The notes: generated by a model from the sequence alone, not told the origin. 64,000 nt of DNA from Patescibacteria group bacterium (GCA_022868165.1 JALHYA010000004.1:16457-80456), one strand, 5' to 3'; counted from the stretch's first letter, positions 14,165 to 52,812 are shown. Numbers and translations are program-made.

Positions 14165-14737
14165 ATGTTTCGGATGAATAAAAAAATCGTTGTTGTTGGA
14201 ATAATTATTTTTATCTTGCTTTTTGGAGCAATTTTCCTTCTTGGTGCGGGACGTAAAAAAACGCCCACTCCTGTTCCAACTACAACCTCGGGGGTTTCCT
14301 GGCAAGGCCTCGTCGCCGGCAAGAGCACAAAGGACCAGGTCAATGGTGTACTGGGAAACCCTCTCAGTGAAACTTCCTCGGGAAATCAAACTACAAACAC
14401 ATATTCTTCCTTAAGCGAAACCCGACCCAACAGTGCCGTTTTTGACAACAACTCCAATACCGCACTGTTTTTAAGGCAAATCGTTTCCGCTAAAGATACC
14501 AAAACAACAAAAGACATTGTGGATGTGTATGGGGAAACAAACACAAAGCTTTACGGCCTTGATTGGATAAACGGGATTTACCTTTTTGTTTATCTGGACA
14601 AGGGGATTGCATATCTTGCAAACCCGGACAGCAACACCCTATTTGAAGTCTGGTATTTTCCTCCCACAACGCTCGACAATTTCCTAAAGACTTGGGCAAC
14701 CGATTATTCAACTCAACCCAAAAACCAACCCTTCTAG
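14165..14737 (+). CDS. membrane-anchored hypothetical protein
   Basis: 190 aa with an N-terminal TM helix (IVVVGIIIFILLFGAIFLLGA). It starts 2 nt after the preceding stop. Confidence 0.65.
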   Translation: MFRMNKKIVVVGIIIFILLFGAIFLLGAGRKKTPTPVPTTTSGVSWQGLVAGKSTKDQVNGVLGNPLSETSSGNQTTNTYSSLSETRPNSAVFDNNSNTALFLRQIVSAKDTKTTKDIVDVYGETNTKLYGLDWINGIYLFVYLDKGIAYLANPDSNTLFEVWYFPPTTLDNFLKTWATDYSTQPKNQPF

Positions 14738-15852
14738 CCCTGAAGTCTAACCGGCATTATAAGGTGAAGATAGTTGGGGTCTGTGGCTTCCTGAAACACT
14801 CCAGGAGCGGTGGCGGATGAGAAAGTTAGCGTTATGGCATCTCCTACGGCTGACTGCAAGAATTCTTCAACAAATCGATAATTGAATGCAATTTCAAATC
14901 CCTTACTTTCGCCCTCGACCTTTGCATCAACTACCGCCTTCTGGCTTCCGGTTTGGTTACTTTCGGCGCTTAACGAAAGTCCCCCTTTTGAAGTAGCAAA
15001 TCGAATTATGTTTGCCGAGTCTCTGGCAAAAACCGAGGATGTTTTGACCGCCCTTAAAAGTTCCTCTTTGTCCACTCCGACTTTTACTTGTCCTCCTTTG
15101 GGGATTATTTTTTCAAAATCGGGAAAGTCCCCTTCCAAAATTCTTGTCGAAAAAACACAATCCCCCACTTCAAAAACCACCTGACTGTCTTTTTCTTTAT
15201 AGGAAAGGGAGATCTCTTCTGCCTCCGCCGAAAGCCTGGAAATTTCTCCCAAAGCGCTTTTCGGCAAAATAATCTTTTGCGGCTTTCCTCCCCCACCCAA
15301 AGAAATCTTCTTTTGGGAAAGCCTAAACCCGTCGGTTGCAACCATTGTCAAGAATCCTTTCTGAAAAAGAAAAAGAACCCCCGTAAGAATGGGCCTTGTC
15401 TCGTCTACTGATGCCGAAAAAACAACCTGAGAAAGGGCCCGGGAAAATTCTTCTTTGGGTAGAAGTATTGAGTTTTGTTTATCTACGCTCTGAGGAATTG
15501 AAGGAAAGTCCCCGGCGTTCATTCCGGAAATGTTGCTTTCAAAACCCTGTGCCGAAATTTGAATTTTTTCTTTTTCTACGGATAATTCAATTTGTCCCGG
15601 AGGAAGATTGGCTACAAGTTCCGAGATAACCCTTGCCGGTACTGTAATTTCTCCCTCTTTTTGTACCTGTGCCCCTATGGAAATTGCAACCGAAATTTCT
15701 AAATTTGTTGCCAAAATGGAAAGTTTTGTCTTCTTTGCCGAAAGAAAGATATTTCCCAAGACAGGAAGTTGGGCTTTGCTGGAAGTAAATCTTAAGGCCG
15801 TATTAAGGGCTTTGGATAAGTTCTCCTGAAGAACAGTAAGTTTCATTTCCAT
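14734..15852 (-). CDS. dnaN: DNA polymerase III beta sliding clamp
   Basis: 372 aa starting MKLTVLQENLSKALN, with clamp-like three-domain length. It lies directly downstream of dnaA. Confidence 0.9.
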   Translation of the reverse strand: MEMKLTVLQENLSKALNTALRFTSSKAQLPVLGNIFLSAKKTKLSILATNLEISVAISIGAQVQKEGEITVPARVISELVANLPPGQIELSVEKEKIQISAQGFESNISGMNAGDFPSIPQSVDKQNSILLPKEEFSRALSQVVFSASVDETRPILTGVLFLFQKGFLTMVATDGFRLSQKKISLGGGGKPQKIILPKSALGEISRLSAEAEEISLSYKEKDSQVVFEVGDCVFSTRILEGDFPDFEKIIPKGGQVKVGVDKEELLRAVKTSSVFARDSANIIRFATSKGGLSLSAESNQTGSQKAVVDAKVEGESKGFEIAFNYRFVEEFLQSAVGDAITLTFSSATAPGVFQEATDPNYLHLIMPVRLQG

Positions 15853-15893: not shown

Positions 15894-16006
15894 ATTATGA
15901 CAGCATTCAAAAAACCGTGAGTGCAAGCTCTCAAATGAATTGAATGCTGACATGTCATCCTTCAAAACAAAAAAGCCTCAACTGTAAGATCGTAGAAGGA
16001 TGTCAT
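15894..16006 (-). repeat. promoter-proximal structured repeat, copy a (upstream of dnaN)
   Basis: The minus strand reads atgacatccttc-N33-gaaggatgacat-gtcagcattcaattcat-hairpin-tttttt-gaatgctgtcataat. It is collinear with the copies at 17887 and 47742. Confidence 0.75.
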
Positions 16007-17561: not shown

Positions 17562-17591
17562 ATAGTAACTAAGTTATCAACAATCCGTCAA
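17562..17591 (-). promoter_or_regulatory. candidate dnaA promoter overlapping a DnaA-box-like site
   Basis: The minus strand reads TTGACG (17586-17591), an 18-nt spacer, then TACTAT (17562-17567). The spacer contains TTATCAACA in reverse. Confidence 0.35.
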
Positions 17592-17592
17592 T
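17574..17592 (+). promoter_or_regulatory. 19-bp repeat ttatcaacaatccgtcaat containing a DnaA-box-like TTATCAACA (copy 1)
   Basis: An exact second copy lies at 17826-17844. TTATCAACA matches the TTATCCACA consensus at 8 of 9 positions. Confidence 0.5.
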
Positions 17593-17825
17593 AGTCAAAA
17601 AGTCTCAGTTTTGTTATCCCTCGAGCTTTGTCGTAAACGCATTTTCAAAAAATGCTCGTCGGGTGTAGCACAAAGAAGATTGCAAATCTCACTCCTCGCT
17701 TGACGTTTCACCAGTCGGAATTTCTCTTACGAGATACAACATCCTTTTTATGACTGGTTCGACACATTTTTGAAAATGGTTTCCTCGCGCTCTCGGGGCA
17801 AACAAAGACTTTGGTAGAATTTTCC

Positions 17826-17844
17826 TTATCAACAATCCGTCAAT
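17826..17844 (+). promoter_or_regulatory. 19-bp repeat ttatcaacaatccgtcaat (copy 2)
   Basis: Identical to 17574-17592. Confidence 0.5.
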
Positions 17845-17854
17845 CCCCAAAAAA

Positions 17855-17886: not shown

Positions 17887-17999
17887 ATGACATCCTCCCC
17901 GCTCCAAAGAGCGGGGTTTCCCTCCAAAGGAGGATGACATATCGGCGTTCAATTCATCTCCGCAACAAATTGCGGAGCGTTCTTGAATGCTGTTATAAT
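17887..17999 (+). repeat. promoter-proximal structured repeat, copy b (upstream of rpmH), ending in the extended -10 TGTTATAAT
   Basis: The sequence is atgacatcctcc-ccgctccaaagagcggggtttccctccaaa-ggaggatgacat-atcggcgttcaattcat-ctccgcaacaaattgcggag-cgttc-ttgaatgctgttataat. TATAAT (17994-17999) lies 6 nt before the rpmH ATG. Confidence 0.8.
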
Positions 18000-18005
18000 A
18001 CCCCT

Positions 18006-18146
18006 ATGTCAACAAAAAGAACCTATCAACCGAAGAAAAGGAAAAGAGCAAAAACTCACGGATTTCGTGCGAGAGTTAAGTCCGCTTCCGGCCGCAGGGT
18101 CCTTAAAAGAAGGCGCCAAAAAGGCCGAAAAAGGCTGACTCCATAA
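18006..18146 (+). CDS. rpmH: 50S ribosomal protein L34
   Basis: 46 aa: [46 protein letters not shown]. The ORF-track entry 17811..18146 is an in-frame read-through of the upstream repeat, so I moved the start to ATG 18006. Confidence 0.9.
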
Positions 18147-25566: not shown

Positions 25567-26361
25567 ATGGATGACAACCTGCCGAATCCGCAAGGGGATA
25601 CCCAGAACCTTGCCAAAATGACAACTCCACCTACTGGAACACCTCCCATACCTCCAACCACGCCGGCTCCTTCTGCGTCGGTCTTAACTCCGACACCAAC
25701 CCCGCCGCCGACCCCCCCAGTGCCTAGTGCCTCAAAGCCTAATTTGATGCTTTGGATTTCTTTGGGAATTTTGGCGTTGGCCGCCATTGCGGGCGGAGCA
25801 TATTATTTCCTCAAGGGAACCTCGACAAAGCCAGTACCCACGCCGGTACCCGTTGCCCCAACTCCAATCCCAACCCCGGTAGATAGAACCACCGGTTGGC
25901 TGACTTATACAAACACAAAGAATAATTTTTCTTTCAAATATCGCCCGGACGCCAAGGTTCAGGAGCAAACAGACGGAACAATAAATCTTACCCTTTTGGG
26001 ACCGACTCAAAAAACAGGAACCGAATTTTTCGACGGACTAAACATGACTTTTAAGCCGGGAAGTCTAGGAGGCTTAACGCTTAAAACCTTTGTCGACAAA
26101 AAAATGACTGTGCTTTCCACTGAGGGGGTTGTTTCGGCGACAACCAGCGCAACCATAGCCCAAATGGTAGGGTATAAATTCCATTTGGAGACCATTGTGC
26201 CCTCCGATTATTATTATCTTCCCTTGGGAACGACTTCATACTTGGAAATTGTTGATTTGACCAGAGACCCTTCAAGCCAAGGTTTTGAGCAAAACGCCCA
26301 AGACACGCTCTCGACTATTACGTTTGGTGTAGCTAGCCCATCGGCAACTCCCGCGATTTAA
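25567..26361 (+). CDS. Pro-rich membrane-anchored hypothetical protein
   Basis: Starts MDDNLPNPQ, with a TPPxP-rich N-terminus, a TM helix (LMLWISLGILALAAIAGGAYYF) and an extracytoplasmic domain. TATAAT (25552-25557) lies 9 nt upstream of the ATG. Confidence 0.6.
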   Translation: MDDNLPNPQGDTQNLAKMTTPPTGTPPIPPTTPAPSASVLTPTPTPPPTPPVPSASKPNLMLWISLGILALAAIAGGAYYFLKGTSTKPVPTPVPVAPTPIPTPVDRTTGWLTYTNTKNNFSFKYRPDAKVQEQTDGTINLTLLGPTQKTGTEFFDGLNMTFKPGSLGGLTLKTFVDKKMTVLSTEGVVSATTSATIAQMVGYKFHLETIVPSDYYYLPLGTTSYLEIVDLTRDPSSQGFEQNAQDTLSTITFGVASPSATPAI

Positions 26362-28511
26362 GTTTTGGGCCAAGAAGCATTAATTAAAATAGGGGAGTCG
26401 AACCGTTCTTTTCCTTCTTGCCAAATTACTTCACTGACAAACGGCATAAACGGATGAATAAGTTTTAGAGATTCTTGTAAAACAAACTCCAAAGTTTTCT
26501 GAGCCTGCTCACGCCTATCTTTGCTTTTTTCGATGTATTCATCCGCAAATTTATGCCAGACAAATTCGTATATTTCTCCTGCAGCCTCATTGAGTCTATA
26601 TTTATCAAGCGCCTTGGTTACTTTGCTTGTCGTGCTTTTGAGCTCTTTTAATATTTTTTTGTCTTCGTCGTTCTTTTTAGCTTTTGAAGACGGTTGGGCC
26701 AGCACAAACCTTGCAATATTCCAAACCTTGTTGGCAAAGTTTCTTTGACCGCGAATATTGTCTTCGGAAAGGGAAATATCGTTTTCCACCAAAGCTCCCC
26801 AGACCATTCCCATTCTCATAGCATCCGCCCCGTATTTATTGGCCATGTCAATCGGGTCAATTACATTTCCCTTTGACTTGGAAATCTTTTGTCCTTCCTT
26901 ATCCCTAACCAATCCATGAATTACAACGTCTCTAAATGGAACATCGCCGGTTGCATAAAGCCCGAGCATGATCATTCTTATGACCCAGAAAGGGAGAATA
27001 TCGTAGGCCGTTTCCATAACTGAGGTTGGATAAAAATAGTTGTAGTCTTCGAATTTTTCTTTATTGGAAATTCCACTCGACGATAGGAGAGTGGCATATG
27101 GCCATTGGCCAGACGAAAACCAGGTGTCGAAGGTGTCCGGGTCCTGAACAAACTTGTCGTGCCCACAACTGGGGCATTTGACAGGCTCAGCCCCGTCTGT
27201 AACGGTCCACTTCATACATTTGTCGCAGCGAAAAGCCGGAATTCTTATTCCCCAGACAATTTGTCTTGAAATATTCCAATCCCTGAGGTTTTTAAGCCAG
27301 TGCTTGGCAATTTTTTCGTAGCGTTCTGAAACAAATTTCACTTGACCTTTAGTTATGGCTTCCAGTGCTTTTTTGGCCAAGGGCGTGATTTTTATAAACC
27401 ATTGTTTTGAAAGCATCGGCTCAATTAGGCCCTTGTCCCTATAGCAAAGTCCAACCACGTGCGCTATTTTTTCTATCTTTTTGATTTTGCCGGCCGCTTC
27501 GAGGTCTTTTACAACTTCTTGTCTTGCTTCTTCCACTTTCATTCCGACATATTTAGAGGGAGTATTCTTCATCCTTCCGGCCTCATCGATTACGCTGACA
27601 ATTTGCAGCTTGTGCTTTTGCCCGATTTCAAAGTCGGTCGCATCATGCCCTGGAGTAATTTTGAGAGCTCCCGTTCCGAAATCTTTATCAACCAAAACAT
27701 CCTCAATTATCGGAAGCTCACGCTCAACCAAGGGTAAGAGGGCGGTTTTGCCGACAATGTCTTTATATCTAGCATCATTGGGATTAACCGCAACCGCAAC
27801 ATCCGCAAATATCGTTTCCGGCCGGGTTGTGGCGATTGTGATTGTTCCGTAGTCCAGATAATACAAATTGTCTTCCCGTTCAACCGAATCAACCTCAAGC
27901 TGTGAATATGCCGTGCCGCAGCGGGGACAATAGTTAACTATTCTTTCGCCCCTATAAACCAACCCTTCGTCATAGAGCTTTTTGAATGTTTTATAGACTA
28001 TCTTGATAATTTCGGGGTCGAGGGTAAATTTGTTTCTTGTCCAGTCGCAGGAAGCACCCAAAATTCTAAGCTGACTTTCCATGGTGGATTTATTTTTTTG
28101 AACATCATCCCAAATCATCTTATAAAGTGTGTCTCGGTCATAGTCGAAGCGGCTTTTGCCTTCGACTCTTAGCTTCCTTTCAAAAACAAACTGCGTTTCA
28201 ATTCCGGCATGGTCTGCGCCCGGAAGCCAAAGCGTGGATTCGCCCTTCATCCTGTGATAACGAATTAAAATATCTTCGATTGCGATAAAACGTGCATGGC
28301 CAACATGTAGAGGGTCGGAAGCATTGGGAGGAGGCATAATTATGGTGAACGGAGGCATCCGACGTCCTGAGCTCTTCGAGTCTGAGCCTGAGGGCTCATC
28401 CCTCAGAGTCGAATGACTTGTCGAAGGAAGGCTTGGGCTAAAGGCGCCGGACTTTTCCCACATTTCATAGATTTTCGCCTCAAAAAGAGCGTGATTATAT
28501 GCCTTGTCCAT
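26358..28511 (-). CDS. valS: valine--tRNA ligase
   Basis: 717 aa with the HIGH region PPPNASDPLHVGHA, WLPGADHAGIETQ, and the KMSKS variant KISKSKGN. Confidence 0.85.
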   Translation of the reverse strand: MDKAYNHALFEAKIYEMWEKSGAFSPSLPSTSHSTLRDEPSGSDSKSSGRRMPPFTIIMPPPNASDPLHVGHARFIAIEDILIRYHRMKGESTLWLPGADHAGIETQFVFERKLRVEGKSRFDYDRDTLYKMIWDDVQKNKSTMESQLRILGASCDWTRNKFTLDPEIIKIVYKTFKKLYDEGLVYRGERIVNYCPRCGTAYSQLEVDSVEREDNLYYLDYGTITIATTRPETIFADVAVAVNPNDARYKDIVGKTALLPLVERELPIIEDVLVDKDFGTGALKITPGHDATDFEIGQKHKLQIVSVIDEAGRMKNTPSKYVGMKVEEARQEVVKDLEAAGKIKKIEKIAHVVGLCYRDKGLIEPMLSKQWFIKITPLAKKALEAITKGQVKFVSERYEKIAKHWLKNLRDWNISRQIVWGIRIPAFRCDKCMKWTVTDGAEPVKCPSCGHDKFVQDPDTFDTWFSSGQWPYATLLSSSGISNKEKFEDYNYFYPTSVMETAYDILPFWVIRMIMLGLYATGDVPFRDVVIHGLVRDKEGQKISKSKGNVIDPIDMANKYGADAMRMGMVWGALVENDISLSEDNIRGQRNFANKVWNIARFVLAQPSSKAKKNDEDKKILKELKSTTSKVTKALDKYRLNEAAGEIYEFVWHKFADEYIEKSKDRREQAQKTLEFVLQESLKLIHPFMPFVSEVIWQEGKERFDSPILINASWPKT

Positions 28512-28526
28512 GCTGATGCTATTATA

Positions 28527-29009
28527 TCAGCACCTGGCTTTGGAGAGAATGAATTTACGAATCTCGGGGGCGACATCGGAAGTAAATTTGTTAAGGACTT
28601 CCCCGGCCGGTACCCAGGCAATTTCGGCAATTTCATATGTTTCGCCATTTTTGGGAGTTTGATTTGCCTTGGGGGTGCAATCAAAATATGCAACTTCAAC
28701 AAAAGTATCGGGATGTTTGCGTTCCAAGAGTTTTTTTACAACCTTAACATCCAATCCGACTTCTTCTTTTGCTTCCCGGATAACCGCCTGCTCATCCGTT
28801 TCATCATCCTCAATAACGCCGCCCGGAAATGCCCACTCCAACTTAAGAAGTCTAACCTTTCTTCTTATGAGTAGAAATTTTCCGTCTTTGACAATCAAGG
28901 CAAGGACCACTTTGGGTTTAAAAACCCTTTTCTCTTTACGCATGAGGCTATTATACACCCGCTTTAATAGTTCTTCTTGCTTTTTTTGGACTCTTAATCG
29001 CTGTCGCAA
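28527..29009 (-). CDS. NUDIX hydrolase (start uncertain)
   Basis: Carries the Nudix box GGVIEDDETDEQAVIREAKEEVGL. The internal ATG at 28943 (MRKEKRV...) is an alternative start. Confidence 0.75.
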   Translation of the reverse strand: MRQRLRVQKKQEELLKRVYNSLMRKEKRVFKPKVVLALIVKDGKFLLIRRKVRLLKLEWAFPGGVIEDDETDEQAVIREAKEEVGLDVKVVKKLLERKHPDTFVEVAYFDCTPKANQTPKNGETYEIAEIAWVPAGEVLNKFTSDVAPEIRKFILSKARC

Positions 29010-39629: not shown

Positions 39630-40835
39630 TTAGGCTGAATCGACAATCGTCATCTCCGCGTTAGCTGAAATCTTTTCCAAGGAAGCGGGTTTGTTGTTGA
39701 AAAAGGCATATGAGGCGATATATGCGGCGTTGTCCGTGCAGAGATTTGCGGGAGGAAATCGTAAATCAACTTTTAACTTTTCACTTTTCACTTTTAACTC
39801 AAATACTTGTCGAAGACGAGTATTAGCCGATACTCCTCCAGCTAAAAGAAGGGATTTGGGCTTGAATTTCTTTACTGCGTCCAGAGTCTTTTTAACTAAA
39901 ACGTCAACGATTGCCTCCTGTATTTCTGCTGCCAGCCTGGAAGTTAGAGGTGGGAAGCTTGAAGCTGGATGTAGATGTTGGAGTTTAGATTTATTCCAAC
40001 TTCTAACTTCTTTGTCCAGCTTCTCACCTCTATTTTCCAATTTCTCTGTTTCCCTAAGCACCGCTGTCTTAAGGCCCGAAAAACTGAAGTCAAAATTATC
40101 CTCATCAATCATCGGTCTGGGAAGTAGATTTAGTTGGAAGTGGGAGGCAGGAGGCTGGAAGTTCGCTGCGGCGGCGGCGATGGCTGGTCCTCCCGGGTAG
40201 GGAAGTCCCAAAAGACGGGCGGACTTGTCAAAAGCCTCGCCGGCCGCATCATCCCTTGTTCCTCCAATCCACTCTATTTTTCCCCGCCCGCCAGCGCTAC
40301 GCGCAAGCGTTGCGGGCGCGGCGTGGCCTTTCATCAGAACCAAATCCGTATGTCCTCCGGAAACAACCAGTGCCAGTGCCGGAAATTCCGGCCGACTATC
40401 CGTTAGCCAGTTGGCGTATATGTGTGCCACAAGATGGTTAACCGGAATAACAGGCTTTTTCCATAAATAGGAAAGGGTTTTGGCCGTTTCTACTCCGACC
40501 AAAAGGGAACCAATAAGGCCCGGCCCGACGGTTACGGCAATGGCGTCTATATTGGAAGATAGAAGATGGAGGTTTGAAGCTAGATTTTGATGTTGGATAT
40601 TAGATTTTTCCTCCAACTTCGAACTTCTAACTTCAGAGACAGTACTTAGTGCTTCGGAGATAACAGGAAGAACGCTGAGAACCTGCTGGCGTGCAGCCTG
40701 CTCCGGGATTACGCCGCCAAATTTGGCCTGCATTTCCGCGCTCGATGCAACAACATTGGAAAGAATTTTTGTTCCGTCTTCGACAACTGCCGCTGCAGTT
40801 TCATCACATGAGGTCTCTATCCCCAGAATTTTCAT
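39630..40835 (-). CDS. tsaD: tRNA N6-adenosine threonylcarbamoyltransferase TsaD, with low-complexity insertions
   Basis: Contains MKILGIETSCDETAAAVV, AIAVTVGPGLIGSLLVG, VVSGGHT, GGTRDDAAGEAFDK, FSFSGLKTA and LAGGVSANTRLR. At 401 aa it is longer than typical TsaD proteins, which as I recall are about 330-350 aa. Confidence 0.9.
   Translation of the reverse strand: MKILGIETSCDETAAAVVEDGTKILSNVVASSAEMQAKFGGVIPEQAARQQVLSVLPVISEALSTVSEVRSSKLEEKSNIQHQNLASNLHLLSSNIDAIAVTVGPGLIGSLLVGVETAKTLSYLWKKPVIPVNHLVAHIYANWLTDSRPEFPALALVVSGGHTDLVLMKGHAAPATLARSAGGRGKIEWIGGTRDDAAGEAFDKSARLLGLPYPGGPAIAAAAANFQPPASHFQLNLLPRPMIDEDNFDFSFSGLKTAVLRETEKLENRGEKLDKEVRSWNKSKLQHLHPASSFPPLTSRLAAEIQEAIVDVLVKKTLDAVKKFKPKSLLLAGGVSANTRLRQVFELKVKSEKLKVDLRFPPANLCTDNAAYIASYAFFNNKPASLEKISANAEMTIVDSA
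39768..39800. repeat. tandem heptamer repeat (AACTTTT/CACTTTT x4) inside tsaD
   Basis: The sequence aacttttaacttttcacttttcacttttaactc encodes ELKVKSEKLKV on the coding strand. Confidence 0.75.
39936..40046. repeat. GGAAGTT-type palindromic heptamer element, in-frame inside tsaD (copy B)
   Basis: The left half is ctggaag|ttagagg|tgggaag|cttgaag|ctggatg... The right half is ...ccaacttctaacttctttgtccagcttctcacctcta. The arms are mutually complementary, and the element is homologous to 40551-40640. Confidence 0.75.
40551..40640. repeat. GGAAGTT-type palindromic heptamer element, in-frame inside tsaD (copy D)
   Basis: The sequence is attggaagatagaagatggaggtttgaagctagattttgatgttggatattagatttttcctccaacttcgaacttctaacttcagagac. 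With copy B it shares gatgttgga..ttagattt..ccaacttc..taacttc. Confidence 0.75.
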
Positions 40836-47741: not shown

Positions 47742-47850
47742 ATGACATCCTCCCCGCTCAAAAGAGCGGGGTTCCCTCTAAAGGAGGATGACATATCAGC
47801 GTTCAATTCATCCCCGACTAAGTCGGGGTTTTCTTGAATGCTGTTATAAT
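47742..47850 (+). repeat. promoter-proximal structured repeat, copy c (upstream of ORF 47860)
   Basis: The sequence is atgacatcctcc-ccgctcaaaagagcggggttccctctaaa-ggaggatgacat-atcagcgttcaattcat-ccccgactaagtcgggg-ttttc-ttgaatgctgttataat. Confidence 0.8.
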
Positions 47851-47859
47851 ATACGCCCT

Positions 47860-48267
47860 ATGGGAAAAGAAAGAAAAAACGATTTTATGCCCCAGGAAAT
47901 TTATGGCGATACGCCGGCGACAAGACGCTGGTTTGCGATTTCCATATGTGAGGTAGCCAAGTACAAGCTTAAAATTAGAGGCGTTCATGAGCCTTCTTGT
48001 GAGGAAATCGAAGCTTTCGTTAAACGGATTAAAGAAAAGCATCCGGGAGAGTGGGCGGTGTTGAGGGATAAGGCCTCGCAACTCCGAAGGAACGAATTCC
48101 TAAAAATAAAAAGAGAGCTCTTTGGGGAAGCCGCGTTTTCTAAGGATGTTTTGATAGGTGTTGGCGAAAAAGTAGAGGAAATTTATCAGGAAATAGACAA
48201 AGATTTGTCAAGAAACTGTGCATTTTTAGATAAAATAATTTTTCCCGAACAAGAGGAAGAAGAATAG
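47860..48267 (+). CDS. hypothetical protein (acidic C-terminus)
   Basis: 135 aa from ATG 47860. The ORF-track start at 47788 reads through the repeat. TATAAT (47845-47850) lies 9 nt upstream. Confidence 0.6.
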   Translation: MGKERKNDFMPQEIYGDTPATRRWFAISICEVAKYKLKIRGVHEPSCEEIEAFVKRIKEKHPGEWAVLRDKASQLRRNEFLKIKRELFGEAAFSKDVLIGVGEKVEEIYQEIDKDLSRNCAFLDKIIFPEQEEEE

Positions 48268-51212: not shown

Positions 51213-52255
51213 AAAATTAAGCCCCCTAAAGCGATTGCGACACCCACAATTGTATAGAACTTGGTCTTTGTATTCAAATTAATTGCCATAAATCCCAACA
51301 GGGCAGTGATTGCCCAGTAAAAAGACGCAACTTTTCTTTTGCTCCAACCCAAATCCAATAGCCTGTGGTGAAGGTGACCGCGGTCGCCCCACACCGGAGA
51401 CCTGCCCCCTATTATGCGTCGCACAATAGTATAGCCGGTGTCAATCAAAGGTACGCCCAAAACTACAATCAAGGTGCCAACTTTGGTTGTTGCCAGAATT
51501 GAAAGAACCGCCAAAAGATATCCGGCCAATGCGGCGCCTCCATAGCTCGGCATTATTTTTTGCGGATAAATGTGCCAAGGTAAAAATCCCAAATAAGCCC
51601 CGGCGGTTATTGCGGCAAGAATTATAACCGGCCATTGAGTGATATCGGCCGAAAACTTTAGGGAAAGAACGGCTATGGTTGCTGCGGCAATCACAACAAC
51701 TCCCGAAAGCTGGCCGTCAACCCCCTTGGCTCCCATATTGAGCATGTTCATCATAAAAACTATCCAAAAAAGAGCGAACAAATCCGACAGCACCCAGATG
51801 CTTTTTGCATCCCCGAAAAGGCTAAAGTGCAGTTGTGGCTGGGAAAGATTAATTATCCCGCCCAAAGGATTTGAAATGAATGCTATTCCGATTCCTGCGG
51901 CAATCGGGAAAAGTGCGGCCACAAAGCCAATGAGTAGCCTGAAATATGGGTTTAGGTCATATTTGTCATCCAGTAGCCCCATGATGATAATTACGGCTCC
52001 CCCGCCCAAAATCGCCAAAATATATTTGTCGTTGGGTAGAAACAGGAAGGAGGCAACGGCTATTGCCGCAAAAATCGCCAAACCTCCGGCTCGCGGCGTA
52101 GGGTGAATATGGATAATCGCGGGGTGCTTATGTTTTTTAGGGTCGTCCATAAGCCCAAATTTTTTAGCAAACCTGATTACCAGGGGTGTTGCAGCAAAGG
52201 CGATAAGTGCGGAAACTAAAGCCGGCAGAAGAGCCAGATTAAATATGCTATTCAT
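51173..52255 (-). CDS. glycosyltransferase family 4 (MraY/WecA-like polyprenyl-phosphate sugar-1-phosphate transferase)
   Basis: 360 aa and polytopic, with GLLDDKYDL, MNMLNMGAKGVDGQ and DRGHLHHRLLDLG. Confidence 0.7.
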   Translation of the reverse strand: MNSIFNLALLPALVSALIAFAATPLVIRFAKKFGLMDDPKKHKHPAIIHIHPTPRAGGLAIFAAIAVASFLFLPNDKYILAILGGGAVIIIMGLLDDKYDLNPYFRLLIGFVAALFPIAAGIGIAFISNPLGGIINLSQPQLHFSLFGDAKSIWVLSDLFALFWIVFMMNMLNMGAKGVDGQLSGVVVIAAATIAVLSLKFSADITQWPVIILAAITAGAYLGFLPWHIYPQKIMPSYGGAALAGYLLAVLSILATTKVGTLIVVLGVPLIDTGYTIVRRIIGGRSPVWGDRGHLHHRLLDLGWSKRKVASFYWAITALLGFMAINLNTKTKFYTIVGVAIALGGLILWLTYRPNLTKKT

Positions 52256-52406
52256 AGCAGTTTCAAGGATACCACGAATTTTATTCGTGGAGGAATTGAA
52301 CCTGATATATCATACTTCGATGGTACTCAGTATGATACTGAGCTTGCCGAAGTATCATCCTTCCCTCAAGGGAAACCGCAAACTTTAGTTTGCTTAAGGA
52401 TGTTAT
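52256..52406 (-). repeat. promoter-proximal structured repeat, degenerate copy d (upstream of the GT4 gene)
   Basis: The minus strand reads acatcctt-N33-aaggatgata, then a 52-nt insert, then ggttcaattcct-ccacgaataaaattcgtgg-tatccttgaaactgctATG. It has the same order of stems as copies a-c. Confidence 0.5.
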
Positions 52407-52410
52407 AAAG

Positions 52411-52812
52411 TTAAAAACTTCCTACCAAGAAAATTATCTTGATAGTTGTAATCACCGTAAAAAAAGTAACGCCGATGCTTGTTAAAATCAGTGCCTTTTT
52501 GAGGAATTCATCTTCCATCAAAAAACATGCCATAACATTGATAATCAGGATTCCTAAAGATACCAAACTTGGTAAGATTAGCCCCAATGCCGGGGCGAGC
52601 TGTGCTTCTCCTTCGGGAAGACTGTAATAAAGAGGTACCTGAGGAGGCAGTCTTTTAAGAAGAAGGACAACGGCCAAAATAGTGGCCAAGCTTGCGAAAA
52701 GCGAAAAATAGGCATAGTTCCTAAAAGGAATTAGGTCCGTGTCGAACCGGACATTTGTGGACAGTTTGGCAGGCCAAAATTTTCTTTTTGGGCCCTTCTT
52801 GGAGTTAGTCAT
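52411..52812 (-). CDS. small polytopic membrane protein
   Basis: 133 aa with 3-4 hydrophobic helices. It overlaps the upstream GT-C gene by 4 nt. Confidence 0.6.
   Translation of the reverse strand: MTNSKKGPKRKFWPAKLSTNVRFDTDLIPFRNYAYFSLFASLATILAVVLLLKRLPPQVPLYYSLPEGEAQLAPALGLILPSLVSLGILIINVMACFLMEDEFLKKALILTSIGVTFFTVITTIKIIFLVGSF

Follow-up and report, generated by a model that had tools for sequence, protein, structure and literature searches.

A hairpin-forming repeat polymorphic between closely related Woesebacteria/Microgenomates strains, very probably a family of non-autonomous mobile DNA elements

In a 64,000-nt stretch of the genome of a Patescibacteria group bacterium (GCA_022868165.1, JALHYA010000004.1:16457-80456; hereafter the window), a structured repeat of ~104-111 bp precedes four genes: rpmH, dnaN, a MraY/WecA-type GT4 gene, and an open reading frame (ORF) starting at 47860. 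The repeat is mobile, as it shows presence/absence polymorphism with exact junctions between strains that are 96-97% identical. We consider it very probable that the repeat represents a family of non-autonomous, hairpin-forming mobile DNA elements of Woesebacteria/Microgenomates; it only resembles a regulatory RNA or a promoter cassette. No account of such a repeat in the Candidate Phyla Radiation (CPR) was found in the literature searched, and as far as that literature shows, the family is previously undescribed and of a known kind. Genes and coordinates follow the numbering of the whole window, L-numbers designate collected loci of related genomes, and P-numbers designate the proteins of those loci.

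Filled and empty insertion sites

Contigs of relatives were gathered via DnaA and GT4 homologs. Copies fall into two subtypes, type A with the layout ...TTCAATTCATCC-hairpin-TTTTCTTGAATGCTGTTAT^AA and type B with the layout ...TTCAATTCCTCC-hairpin-TATCCTTGAAACTGTTAT^GAA; the GT4 copy of the window belongs to type B. Relatives at 96%, 85%, and 73% DnaA identity lack the dnaN and rpmH copies, and the corresponding sites are cleanly empty. Filled and empty sites could be compared in four pairs, all of them exact, with a shared 2-nt AT as the sole ambiguity (^, insertion point; brackets, element):

dnaN site: filled in the window, empty in L117-L120; empty TATTTTAAT^AATCTAAAG (also written GACTATTTTAAT^AATCTAAAGTACGAC), filled TTTTAAT[GACATCC...GCTGTCAT]AATC
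rpmH site: filled in the window, empty in L117-L121; empty GGAAACTTTAT^AATACCCCTATG, which in L117-L121 reads GGAAACT TTAT AATACCCCTATG
rnpA/yidD site: filled in L117-L119 (type B), empty in the window and L120; empty AATGAAAT^GAAAAAA, filled GAAAT[AACATCC...CTGTTAT]GAAAAA
GT4 site: filled in the window and in the 97% relative L243, empty in L244-L246 (85%, 75%, and 74%), where the genes are adjacent with a 0-8 nt spacer

The empty rnpA/yidD site is an ATGA stop/start overlap, which the insertion splits into TAA...ATG; the stop codon of rnpA is then the element's TAA, and the ATG of yidD is kept. At its dnaN ATG, L121 has an independently inserted type B copy that the window lacks, and the GT4 copy of L243 is the same copy as that of the window without a nested 45-nt hairpin.

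These comparisons also bear on a role of the two dnaA-flanking copies as functional parts of the replication origin (unwinding or protein-binding hairpins). The copies do lie in the dnaA-dnaN and dnaA-rpmH spacers, beside DnaA-box-like TTATCCACA motifs; however, both are missing in the 96% relative, in which the spacers are otherwise collinear, and the same element occurs at >100 unrelated loci. Because the dnaN and rpmH sites are empty in relatives, we take the dnaA-flanking copies to be unrelated to origin function and regard such a role as having a negligible probability.

Family and host range

We scanned species-representative genomes with sequence patterns and, in a second scan, metagenomes with a pattern for the P2 module only. 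In the first scan, true copies occurred only in Woesebacteria/Microgenomates/Patescibacteria metagenome-assembled genomes, with a few labelled otherwise, and the remaining matches were chance matches and three real tRNAs. The metagenome scan yielded 120 loci, for the most part from groundwater. A profile search over all collected sequence gave 153 hits at 132 loci; counted by copy and flanks, 114 of the hits are distinct. The initial annotation had proposed a search for further copies in related CPR genomes, and the 153 hits lie across Woesebacteria/Microgenomates. Its suggestion of a miniature mobile element is borne out in substance by these hits, by the exact presence/absence junctions, and by the near-identical copies in one genome: four copies in a single Microgenomatus contig (L002/L018/L077/L079) are near-identical, their "variable" hairpins included.

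A tRNA-like reading of GGTTCAATTCC was rejected, as the pattern itself drew real tRNAs (L021, L031, and L065) and type A forms no T-arm.

Copies in the window

All four copies listed in the initial annotation are present, three of them canonical and one longer (GT4). A 26-nt core pattern has three matches in the window versus 0.00 expected, and the 3' block has three matches versus 0.40 expected. Copy limits refer to the gene strand and include the AT at both ends:

17887-17996 (+): type A copy within the -10 box of rpmH, a leaderless gene; net insertion of 108 bp (17889-17996) after TTAT
17887-17896 and 17931-17940 (+): P1 arms of the rpmH copy, from sequence and fold
17897-17916 (+): hairpin P1a of the rpmH copy, from the fold
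~17920-17930 (+): small hairpin P1b of the rpmH copy, from the fold
17941-17952 and 17983-17996 (+): P2 arms of the rpmH copy, from the fold
17958-17977 (+): hairpin P2a of the rpmH copy, then a T-rich tract, from the fold
17994-17999 (+): TATAAT -10 box of rpmH, 6 nt before the ATG at 18006
47742-47847 (+): type A copy, with a divergent 103-aa ORF (start 47732) on one side and ORF 47860 on the other
47845-47850 (+): TATAAT of the 47742 copy, 9 nt before the ATG of ORF 47860
15897-16006 (-): type A copy between dnaA and dnaN, 44 nt before the dnaN ATG
52254-52406 (-): type B copy before the MraY/WecA-type GT4 gene, occupying the entire spacer after the stop of ORF 52411-52812
52308-52352 (-): nested 45-nt mini-hairpin GATACTTCGG...CGAAGTAT in the GT4 copy, at the site GGAT^GATAT between P1 and P2
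Neighbouring genes: dnaN 14734-15852 (-), dnaA 16177-17538 (-), rpmH 18006-18146 (+), then rnpA, yidD, and yidC

All four copies point the same way as the downstream gene. The -10-like ending TGTTATAAT noted in the initial annotation is indeed followed by an ATG 6 nt on in the rpmH copy (18006) and 9 nt on in the copy before ORF 47860. The dnaN copy is the most diverged of the window's copies. The GT4 copy had been called degenerate; it is really a normal type B copy with the nested 45-nt hairpin, and its final two bases are the AT of the GT4 start codon (ATG at 52255-52253).

Unrelated type A copies (L140, 4313-4355; L138, 778-820; and L131, 3853-3895) carry the nested mini-hairpin too, again at the internal GGAT^GA site. 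The mini-hairpin begins with GAYA, finishes with GTAT, and obeys the same AT^RA rule as the element itself, under which it looks like a still smaller mobile hairpin.

Gene callers run ORFs into the element: a 159-aa call (47788-48267) stands for a protein of 135 aa, the GT4 homolog P0122 is called at 387 aa instead of 360 aa by extension into the element, and the dnaN gene of L121 is called from within the element copy. For the 47742 copy no empty site was obtained, as there is no record of the exact protein and the sole public contig (L247) terminates within this copy. The overcalled ORFs and the contig break thus indicate that the repeat degrades both annotation and assembly.

Two other extra segments were observed between dnaA and yidC. 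In the dnaA-rpmH spacer (17572-17848), the window has a 252-bp extra segment bounded by a 19-nt direct repeat, TTATCAACAATCCGTCAAT, with a DnaA-box-like motif; the segment is missing from L117-L121, and no collected locus has a second copy. Between yidD and yidC, the 96% relatives L117-L119 have an ~80-bp AT-rich, partly palindromic insert (AACCAACTAATAACTAAAATG...TTAGATAAT, ~1998-2070), which is absent from the window, L120, and L121 and may be another small mobile repeat.

Secondary structure and covariation

Each copy consists of two adjacent long palindromes. The P1 stem (ATGaCATCCTCC/GGAGGATGaCAT) encloses hairpins P1a and P1b, and the P2 stem (ATaTCRGCRTTCAA/TTGAATGCTGtTAT) encloses hairpin P2a; on the gene strand, copies start with RACA and finish with TGTYAT. 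The RNA folds of the four window copies are far better than those of shuffled sequences (z-scores of -7.8, -7.9, -3.1, and -6.2), and the opposite strand folds about as well (-5.5, -8.6, -3.4, and -5.6). Folded as single-stranded DNA, either strand is equally significant.

The paired stem changes described in the initial annotation, from CATCCTCC/GGAGGATG to CATCCTTC/GAAGGATG and between GCATTCAA and GCGTTCAA in pairing with TTGAATGC, are all present. We then aligned 86 distinct copies from many genomes to a five-helix structure (alignment A2). In this larger alignment covariation is strong: the five helices are 95.2% paired, compared with 80.7% in shuffles (0 of 500 reached the observed value) and 36-47% in slid controls, and 28 of the 37 base pairs vary on both sides. 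In L172, L192, L184, and L177, moreover, the P1 stem is built from altogether different sequences, the alternative stems being ATGATTTTC/GAAAATCAT, ATGACGTGCC/GGCACGACAT, and CATTCTC/GAGAATG. Because pairing exceeds both kinds of control, most pairs covary, and P1 recurs with different sequences, the stems are, judged from this comparison of copies, under selection. The retrieval patterns for many copies fixed GGATGAYA, TTCAATTC, TTGAA, and TGTTAT, so the conservation of those blocks is partly imposed.

The initial annotation had also described one stem change as G.U-compatible only at the RNA level. Based on the counts in A2, G.T and A.C mismatches are about equally common (5/5 in P1, 23/22 in P1a, 6/9 in P1b, and 12/15 in P2a), and the sole exception to this symmetry is one inherited G.T in P2, present in 42 of the 86 copies, on which the argument hangs. 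As a test of the RNA strand, wobble asymmetry therefore lends the RNA reading no support. Since the mismatches are symmetric, the covariation is no sign of an RNA of a particular polarity and is just as consistent with hairpins recognised in DNA.

A conserved structured 5' leader or cis-regulatory RNA for the downstream genes (riboswitch-like, a processing site, or a translational operator) would accommodate the strongly covarying stems, the co-orientation of the four window copies with their downstream genes, the location of type B copies at an ATG in 20 of 22 cases, and the pairing of GGAGG with CCUCC in P1; copies within operons (GT4 and yidD) must, moreover, be co-transcribed. However, the same loci are empty in the 96%, 85%, and 73% relatives, and the downstream genes are mutually unrelated. 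In addition, type A copies are found directly against the 3' ends of convergent genes, an ORF contains one copy in frame, the mismatches are without strand bias, Shine-Dalgarno (SD) motifs are hardly used in these genomes, and no Rfam family matches at threshold. We therefore consider a leader RNA very improbable; given the empty orthologous loci, the mixed contexts, and the lack of strand bias, the transcribed cis-acting or processing RNA that the initial annotation had put forward is unsupported as the reason for the sequence.

In keeping with that annotation, Rfam at the gathering threshold assigns the repeat to no known RNA family, and the window gives only two tRNAs. Ordinary Rfam matches in the collected loci include a glmS ribozyme directly beside an element copy (L112, 7070-7279, minus strand) and a DUF3800-V RNA ~750 nt from another (L060, 3149-3246, minus strand).

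The two subtypes differ downstream of P2a. Type A has a terminator-like T-run, TTTTCTT (flagged at 47812-47828), whereas type B has TATCC or TTTCC in A2 columns 104-108, without a T-run, and its copies are usually at start codons inside operons.

Insertion rule and gene context

The element inserts in a single orientation into 5'-AT^RA-3' (gene strand), and apart from the 2-nt AT ambiguity no nucleotides are gained or lost. The downstream flank of type A was AA in 27 of 27 cases (first 38 copies), giving TTAT^ as the opposite-strand target; that of type B was GAA in 10 of 11 (G and A in 11/11, the third A in 10/11), giving TTCAT^. Upstream, only the A of AT is invariant, and the base preceding AT can be T, A, G, or C; conservation is thus confined to the downstream side. 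Since the element begins with RA and ends with AT, both junctions again read AT^RA, and short signals that overlap the site survive. Insertion in this way rebuilds the T^ATAAT -10 boxes of leaderless genes, hence the type A copies 6-9 nt before an ATG; type B retains ^ATGAA start codons, its ATAACA end often giving the upstream gene a TAA stop, and TTAT^AA stop codons are likewise rebuilt. Stop codons lie inside TTATAA in L036 and L014, at the 3' ends of convergent genes.

In the window, SD motifs precede 4 of 58 genes, and many genes have a TATAAT-like box 5-10 nt before the ATG; examples of the putatively leaderless type are:

28527-29009 (-): leaderless-type gene
37701 (+): leaderless-type gene
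39630-40835 (-): leaderless-type gene
26358-28511 (-): leaderless-type gene

Among 733 genes in the collected loci, TATAAT-like hexamers peak 6, 7, and 8 nt before the ATG (58, 22, and 33 versus a background of ~7), and SD 4-mers are barely raised. This pile-up of -10-like boxes, together with the rarity of SD motifs, suggests from sequence that leaderless mRNAs are common in these Woesebacteria. The presence of ATAA-containing -10 boxes directly before start codons explains the 6-9 nt spacing of type A.

Type A contexts are mixed and comprise gene starts, 3' ends of convergent genes, or neither. For type B, an ORF of at least 70 aa starts at the AT^G of the junction in 20 of 22 non-edge copies, and 6 copies provide the TAA of the upstream gene. 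One copy is inserted in frame (L002, 1079-1191; DYGS01000001.1), in a gene for a GT39/PMT_2 membrane glycosyltransferase (P0241). This protein has 36 extra residues that are missing from seven homologs with 54-56% identity, and the pairwise comparison shows a 37-aa gap. At most 8 of the 153 copies are spanned by long open frames, and in-frame insertion was verified for this one.

A second reading in the initial annotation was that the element delivers a promoter, and a mobile promoter (or terminator-plus-promoter) cassette supplying an extended -10 to the downstream gene fits several observations. Each type A insertion yields TGTTATAAn, P2a and TTTTCTT form a terminator-like unit just upstream, and an ATG or a tRNA follows within 6-13 nt in 5-6 copies. 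For the tested rpmH case, however, delivery of a promoter is wrong, as the -10 box is ancestral and already exists in empty sites (ACTTTATAATACCCCTATG, TATAAT included) at the same distance, 6 nt before the ATG; the three empty lineages read TATAAT, TATACT (85%), and TATAAT (73%). In the filled site, the T of the box comes from the element end (..TGTT), the AT is shared, and AAT comes from the target. The element adds a TG at 17991-17992 (extended -10) and pushes the upstream sequence ~108 bp from the -10. A T after ATAA would complete TATAAT, but of 61 type A copies only 14 have this flank base, which is no enrichment; the element itself thus does not bring a perfect TATAAT. Many copies also face gene 3' ends or have no close gene start, and the end of type B is not -10-like. 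A promoter cassette is thus distinctly unlikely.

Probable mechanism of movement

The element probably works like an IS200/IS605-type palindrome-associated transposable element (PATE), a likeness short of proven membership. It would move by a single-stranded HUH route (IS200/IS605-like "peel and paste") or a related site-specific route, with the enzyme provided in trans, and its stems would be preserved because a transposase reads the hairpins. Effects at the RNA level, such as the intercistronic structure, the terminator-like P2a with T-run of type A, and the TG added before the -10, would be by-products.

The target is one-sided and 4-5 nt long (on the reverse strand, TTAT^ in 27/27 type A and TTCAT^ in 10-11/11 type B copies), and there is no target duplication. 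On the reverse strand, 17-19 nt separate the target from the hairpin that follows it 3', and 8-10 nt separate the second hairpin from the opposite end, which lies 3' of it. In IS608, the hairpin-to-end distances are 19 nt on the left and 10 nt on the right, the target lies outside the element, and insertion proceeds without gain or loss (PMC3201880); the asymmetry of distances in the present element resembles this. A2 columns 107 and 106, beside the foot of P2a, are where IS608 keeps its guide on the reverse strand, and they are complementary to flank position +1 in 78 of 86 and to +2 in 84 of 86 copies. There is nothing at +3 and +4, and column 77 tracks the flank in 80 of 86. A perfect guide/target rule held for 38 of 38 copies in the first set and was rejected on 6 exceptions among the 86.

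The reverse strand also matches Rfam RF00062 (HgcC) across the whole 130-nt model, with a best score of 34.3 bits (E = 8e-7, 141-nt search). At relaxed thresholds, HgcC matches recur in seven copies at 27-34 bits, on the reverse strand only, and RF02656 (sot0042), the 3'-end transcript of a haloarchaeal IS1341-type tnpB, matches the same strand at 18.5 bits. HgcC, 3'-end transcripts of IS1341-type tnpB, and PATEs, which are fused IS200/IS605 ends, have been tied together via a right-end-like hairpin (PMC4615843).

Several observations weigh against this interpretation. Among ORF clusters within ≤1.5 kb of 150 copies, there was no tnpA, tnpB, RAYT, or serine recombinase beside the copies, and Pfam analysis of 20 window ORFs identified no Y1_Tnp, OrfB, or recombinase; the search covered 8-kb genome pieces and window ORFs rather than whole genomes, and absence from the genomes is not shown. 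Neither solo ends nor a full-length element bounded by these ends occurred in the collected loci. The HgcC scores lie below the 50-bit gathering score, and much of each is due to a generic GC hairpin. The covariation of flank and candidate guide amounts to one informative position with 6-8 exceptions and possible subfamily linkage. On the reverse strand, each end hairpin is nested in an extra long stem, and the right-end P1a is wholly missing from at least eight copies (L170, L193, L194, L203, L204, L234, L159, and L111), which is awkward for P1a as a right-end recognition hairpin. A serine or tyrosine recombinase would suit the shared 2-nt AT crossover just as well. Type B is in real excess at start codons, beyond what target sequence alone explains, as the availability of ATGAA (163-234 gene-start versus 472 intergenic sites in 866 kb) predicts ~30% at gene starts; some type B copies are orthologous, and the excess is therefore less extreme than in a naive binomial test. 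Finally, individual copies may have acquired an RNA role.

Three leads from the enzyme search were rejected. Matches to a "solo P2" were copies with a reduced or re-sequenced P1, and the genes ending at the element's 3' side, considered as an adjacent tnpB, turned out to encode membrane proteins and proteins of the MurE-like, GT, and GlmU-like kinds. When ORFs within ≤1.5 kb of copies were clustered all against all, a 40-locus family of neighbor genes emerged that was an artefact of translating the element itself (peptides including IRGILETVM); only 10 loci, with GT39-like genes and no transposase, were left once alignments of ≥100 aa were required.

Movement by a different kind of enzyme was also considered, namely a classical cut-and-paste miniature inverted-repeat transposable element (DDE, Correia/Tc1-IS630-like, with short terminal inverted repeats and a 2-bp duplication) or one moved by an IS607-type serine recombinase with an AT crossover. 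The inverted ends TGACA...TGTCA and the AT at either junction agree with such an element, and a circle of joined ends would have the palindromic core TGTY-AT-RACA; the likeness to HgcC/sot0042 would also be in line with IS607 elements, as these carry tnpB too. However, the inverted termini extend over only ~5 nt (TRACA), short of the criterion of ≥10 bp for terminal inverted repeats, the shared dinucleotide is AT rather than TA, and symmetric DDE transposases do not usually have a one-sided target. IS200/IS605 is the better match for the subterminal hairpins with their asymmetric spacing, and no transposase of the kinds considered here was found in ORFs near copies or in the 20 window ORFs. 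We regard this alternative as unlikely.

Returning to the IS200/IS605-like interpretation, a more specific form of it would be a guide-bearing HUH-type element in which a 2-nt guide by P2a sets TTAT versus TTCAT, type B is directed to or retained at the first bases of leaderless genes, possibly because a promoter open complex exposes the template strand there as single-stranded DNA, and the archaeal HgcC RNAs are the transcribed form of the same kind of element. We put this forward as a speculative and rather doubtful extension; if true, it would link a CPR repeat, the orphan HgcC family, and TnpB-type omega-RNA scaffolds.

Implications

The small genomes of CPR/Patescibacteria are usually portrayed as poor in mobile DNA. 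In the present case, one element has four copies in 64 kb, moves between strains of 96-97% identity, interrupts assemblies, and leads gene callers astray. Annotators of promoters, start codons, or "structured leaders" in Woesebacteria should mask the repeat first. The combination of an AT^RA target with RA...AT ends, which rebuilds -10 boxes and start and stop codons, offers a view of how a selfish element can persist in a compact, largely leaderless genome, and the leaderless architecture is itself of use in models of gene expression in the CPR. The likeness to HgcC/sot0042, although below threshold, provides a testable lead on the orphan HgcC family.

Comparison with known systems

Like PATEs and IS200-IS605 miniatures, and like REP/REPIN-RAYT systems, the element is small and non-autonomous and has subterminal hairpins. 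With PATEs and IS608, their mechanistic model, it shares an orientation-specific insertion 3' of a short sequence (TTAT or TTCAT, reverse strand) and seamless empty sites without real duplication; the nucleotides by a hairpin foot that are complementary to the target in most copies may be a further likeness. It differs from them in that no TnpA, TnpB, or RAYT was found in ORFs near copies or in window ORFs, each hairpin lies inside an extra long-range stem (P1 or P2), AT is common to the target and the element's own 3' end, the candidate guide is ~2 nt and imperfect, and one hairpin is missing in some copies.

With RF00062 HgcC of Methanocaldococcus, the element shares the order of a hairpin, GAUGA..UGAAC, a small hairpin, a CCCCGC..GCGGGG hairpin, and then AGGAGGUCA/AGGAUGUCA. 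In contrast to HgcC and sot0042, which are archaeal, its hosts are bacteria of the CPR, and its central region is 22 nt shorter.

Neisseria Correia elements (CREE) are abundant, ~100-150 bp long, and have 26-bp terminal inverted repeats and a TA duplication; they adjoin genes, are co-transcribed, and can affect promoters, terminators, and mRNA processing. The likeness to them drawn in the initial annotation holds functionally, whereas structurally it does not, as the present element lacks long terminal inverted repeats and a TA duplication and has inverted termini of ~5 nt, a one-sided target, and two tandem palindromes.

Rickettsia palindromic elements, attributed to Ogata et al. 2000, are reportedly palindromic repeats of ~100-150 bp that occur both between genes and in frame within genes of a reduced genome. 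The present element has no sequence relation to them, is mostly intergenic, with few in-frame copies, and has a defined 4-5 nt target; it is like them in its in-frame insert of 36 codons in the GT39 gene, which is missing from the homologs.

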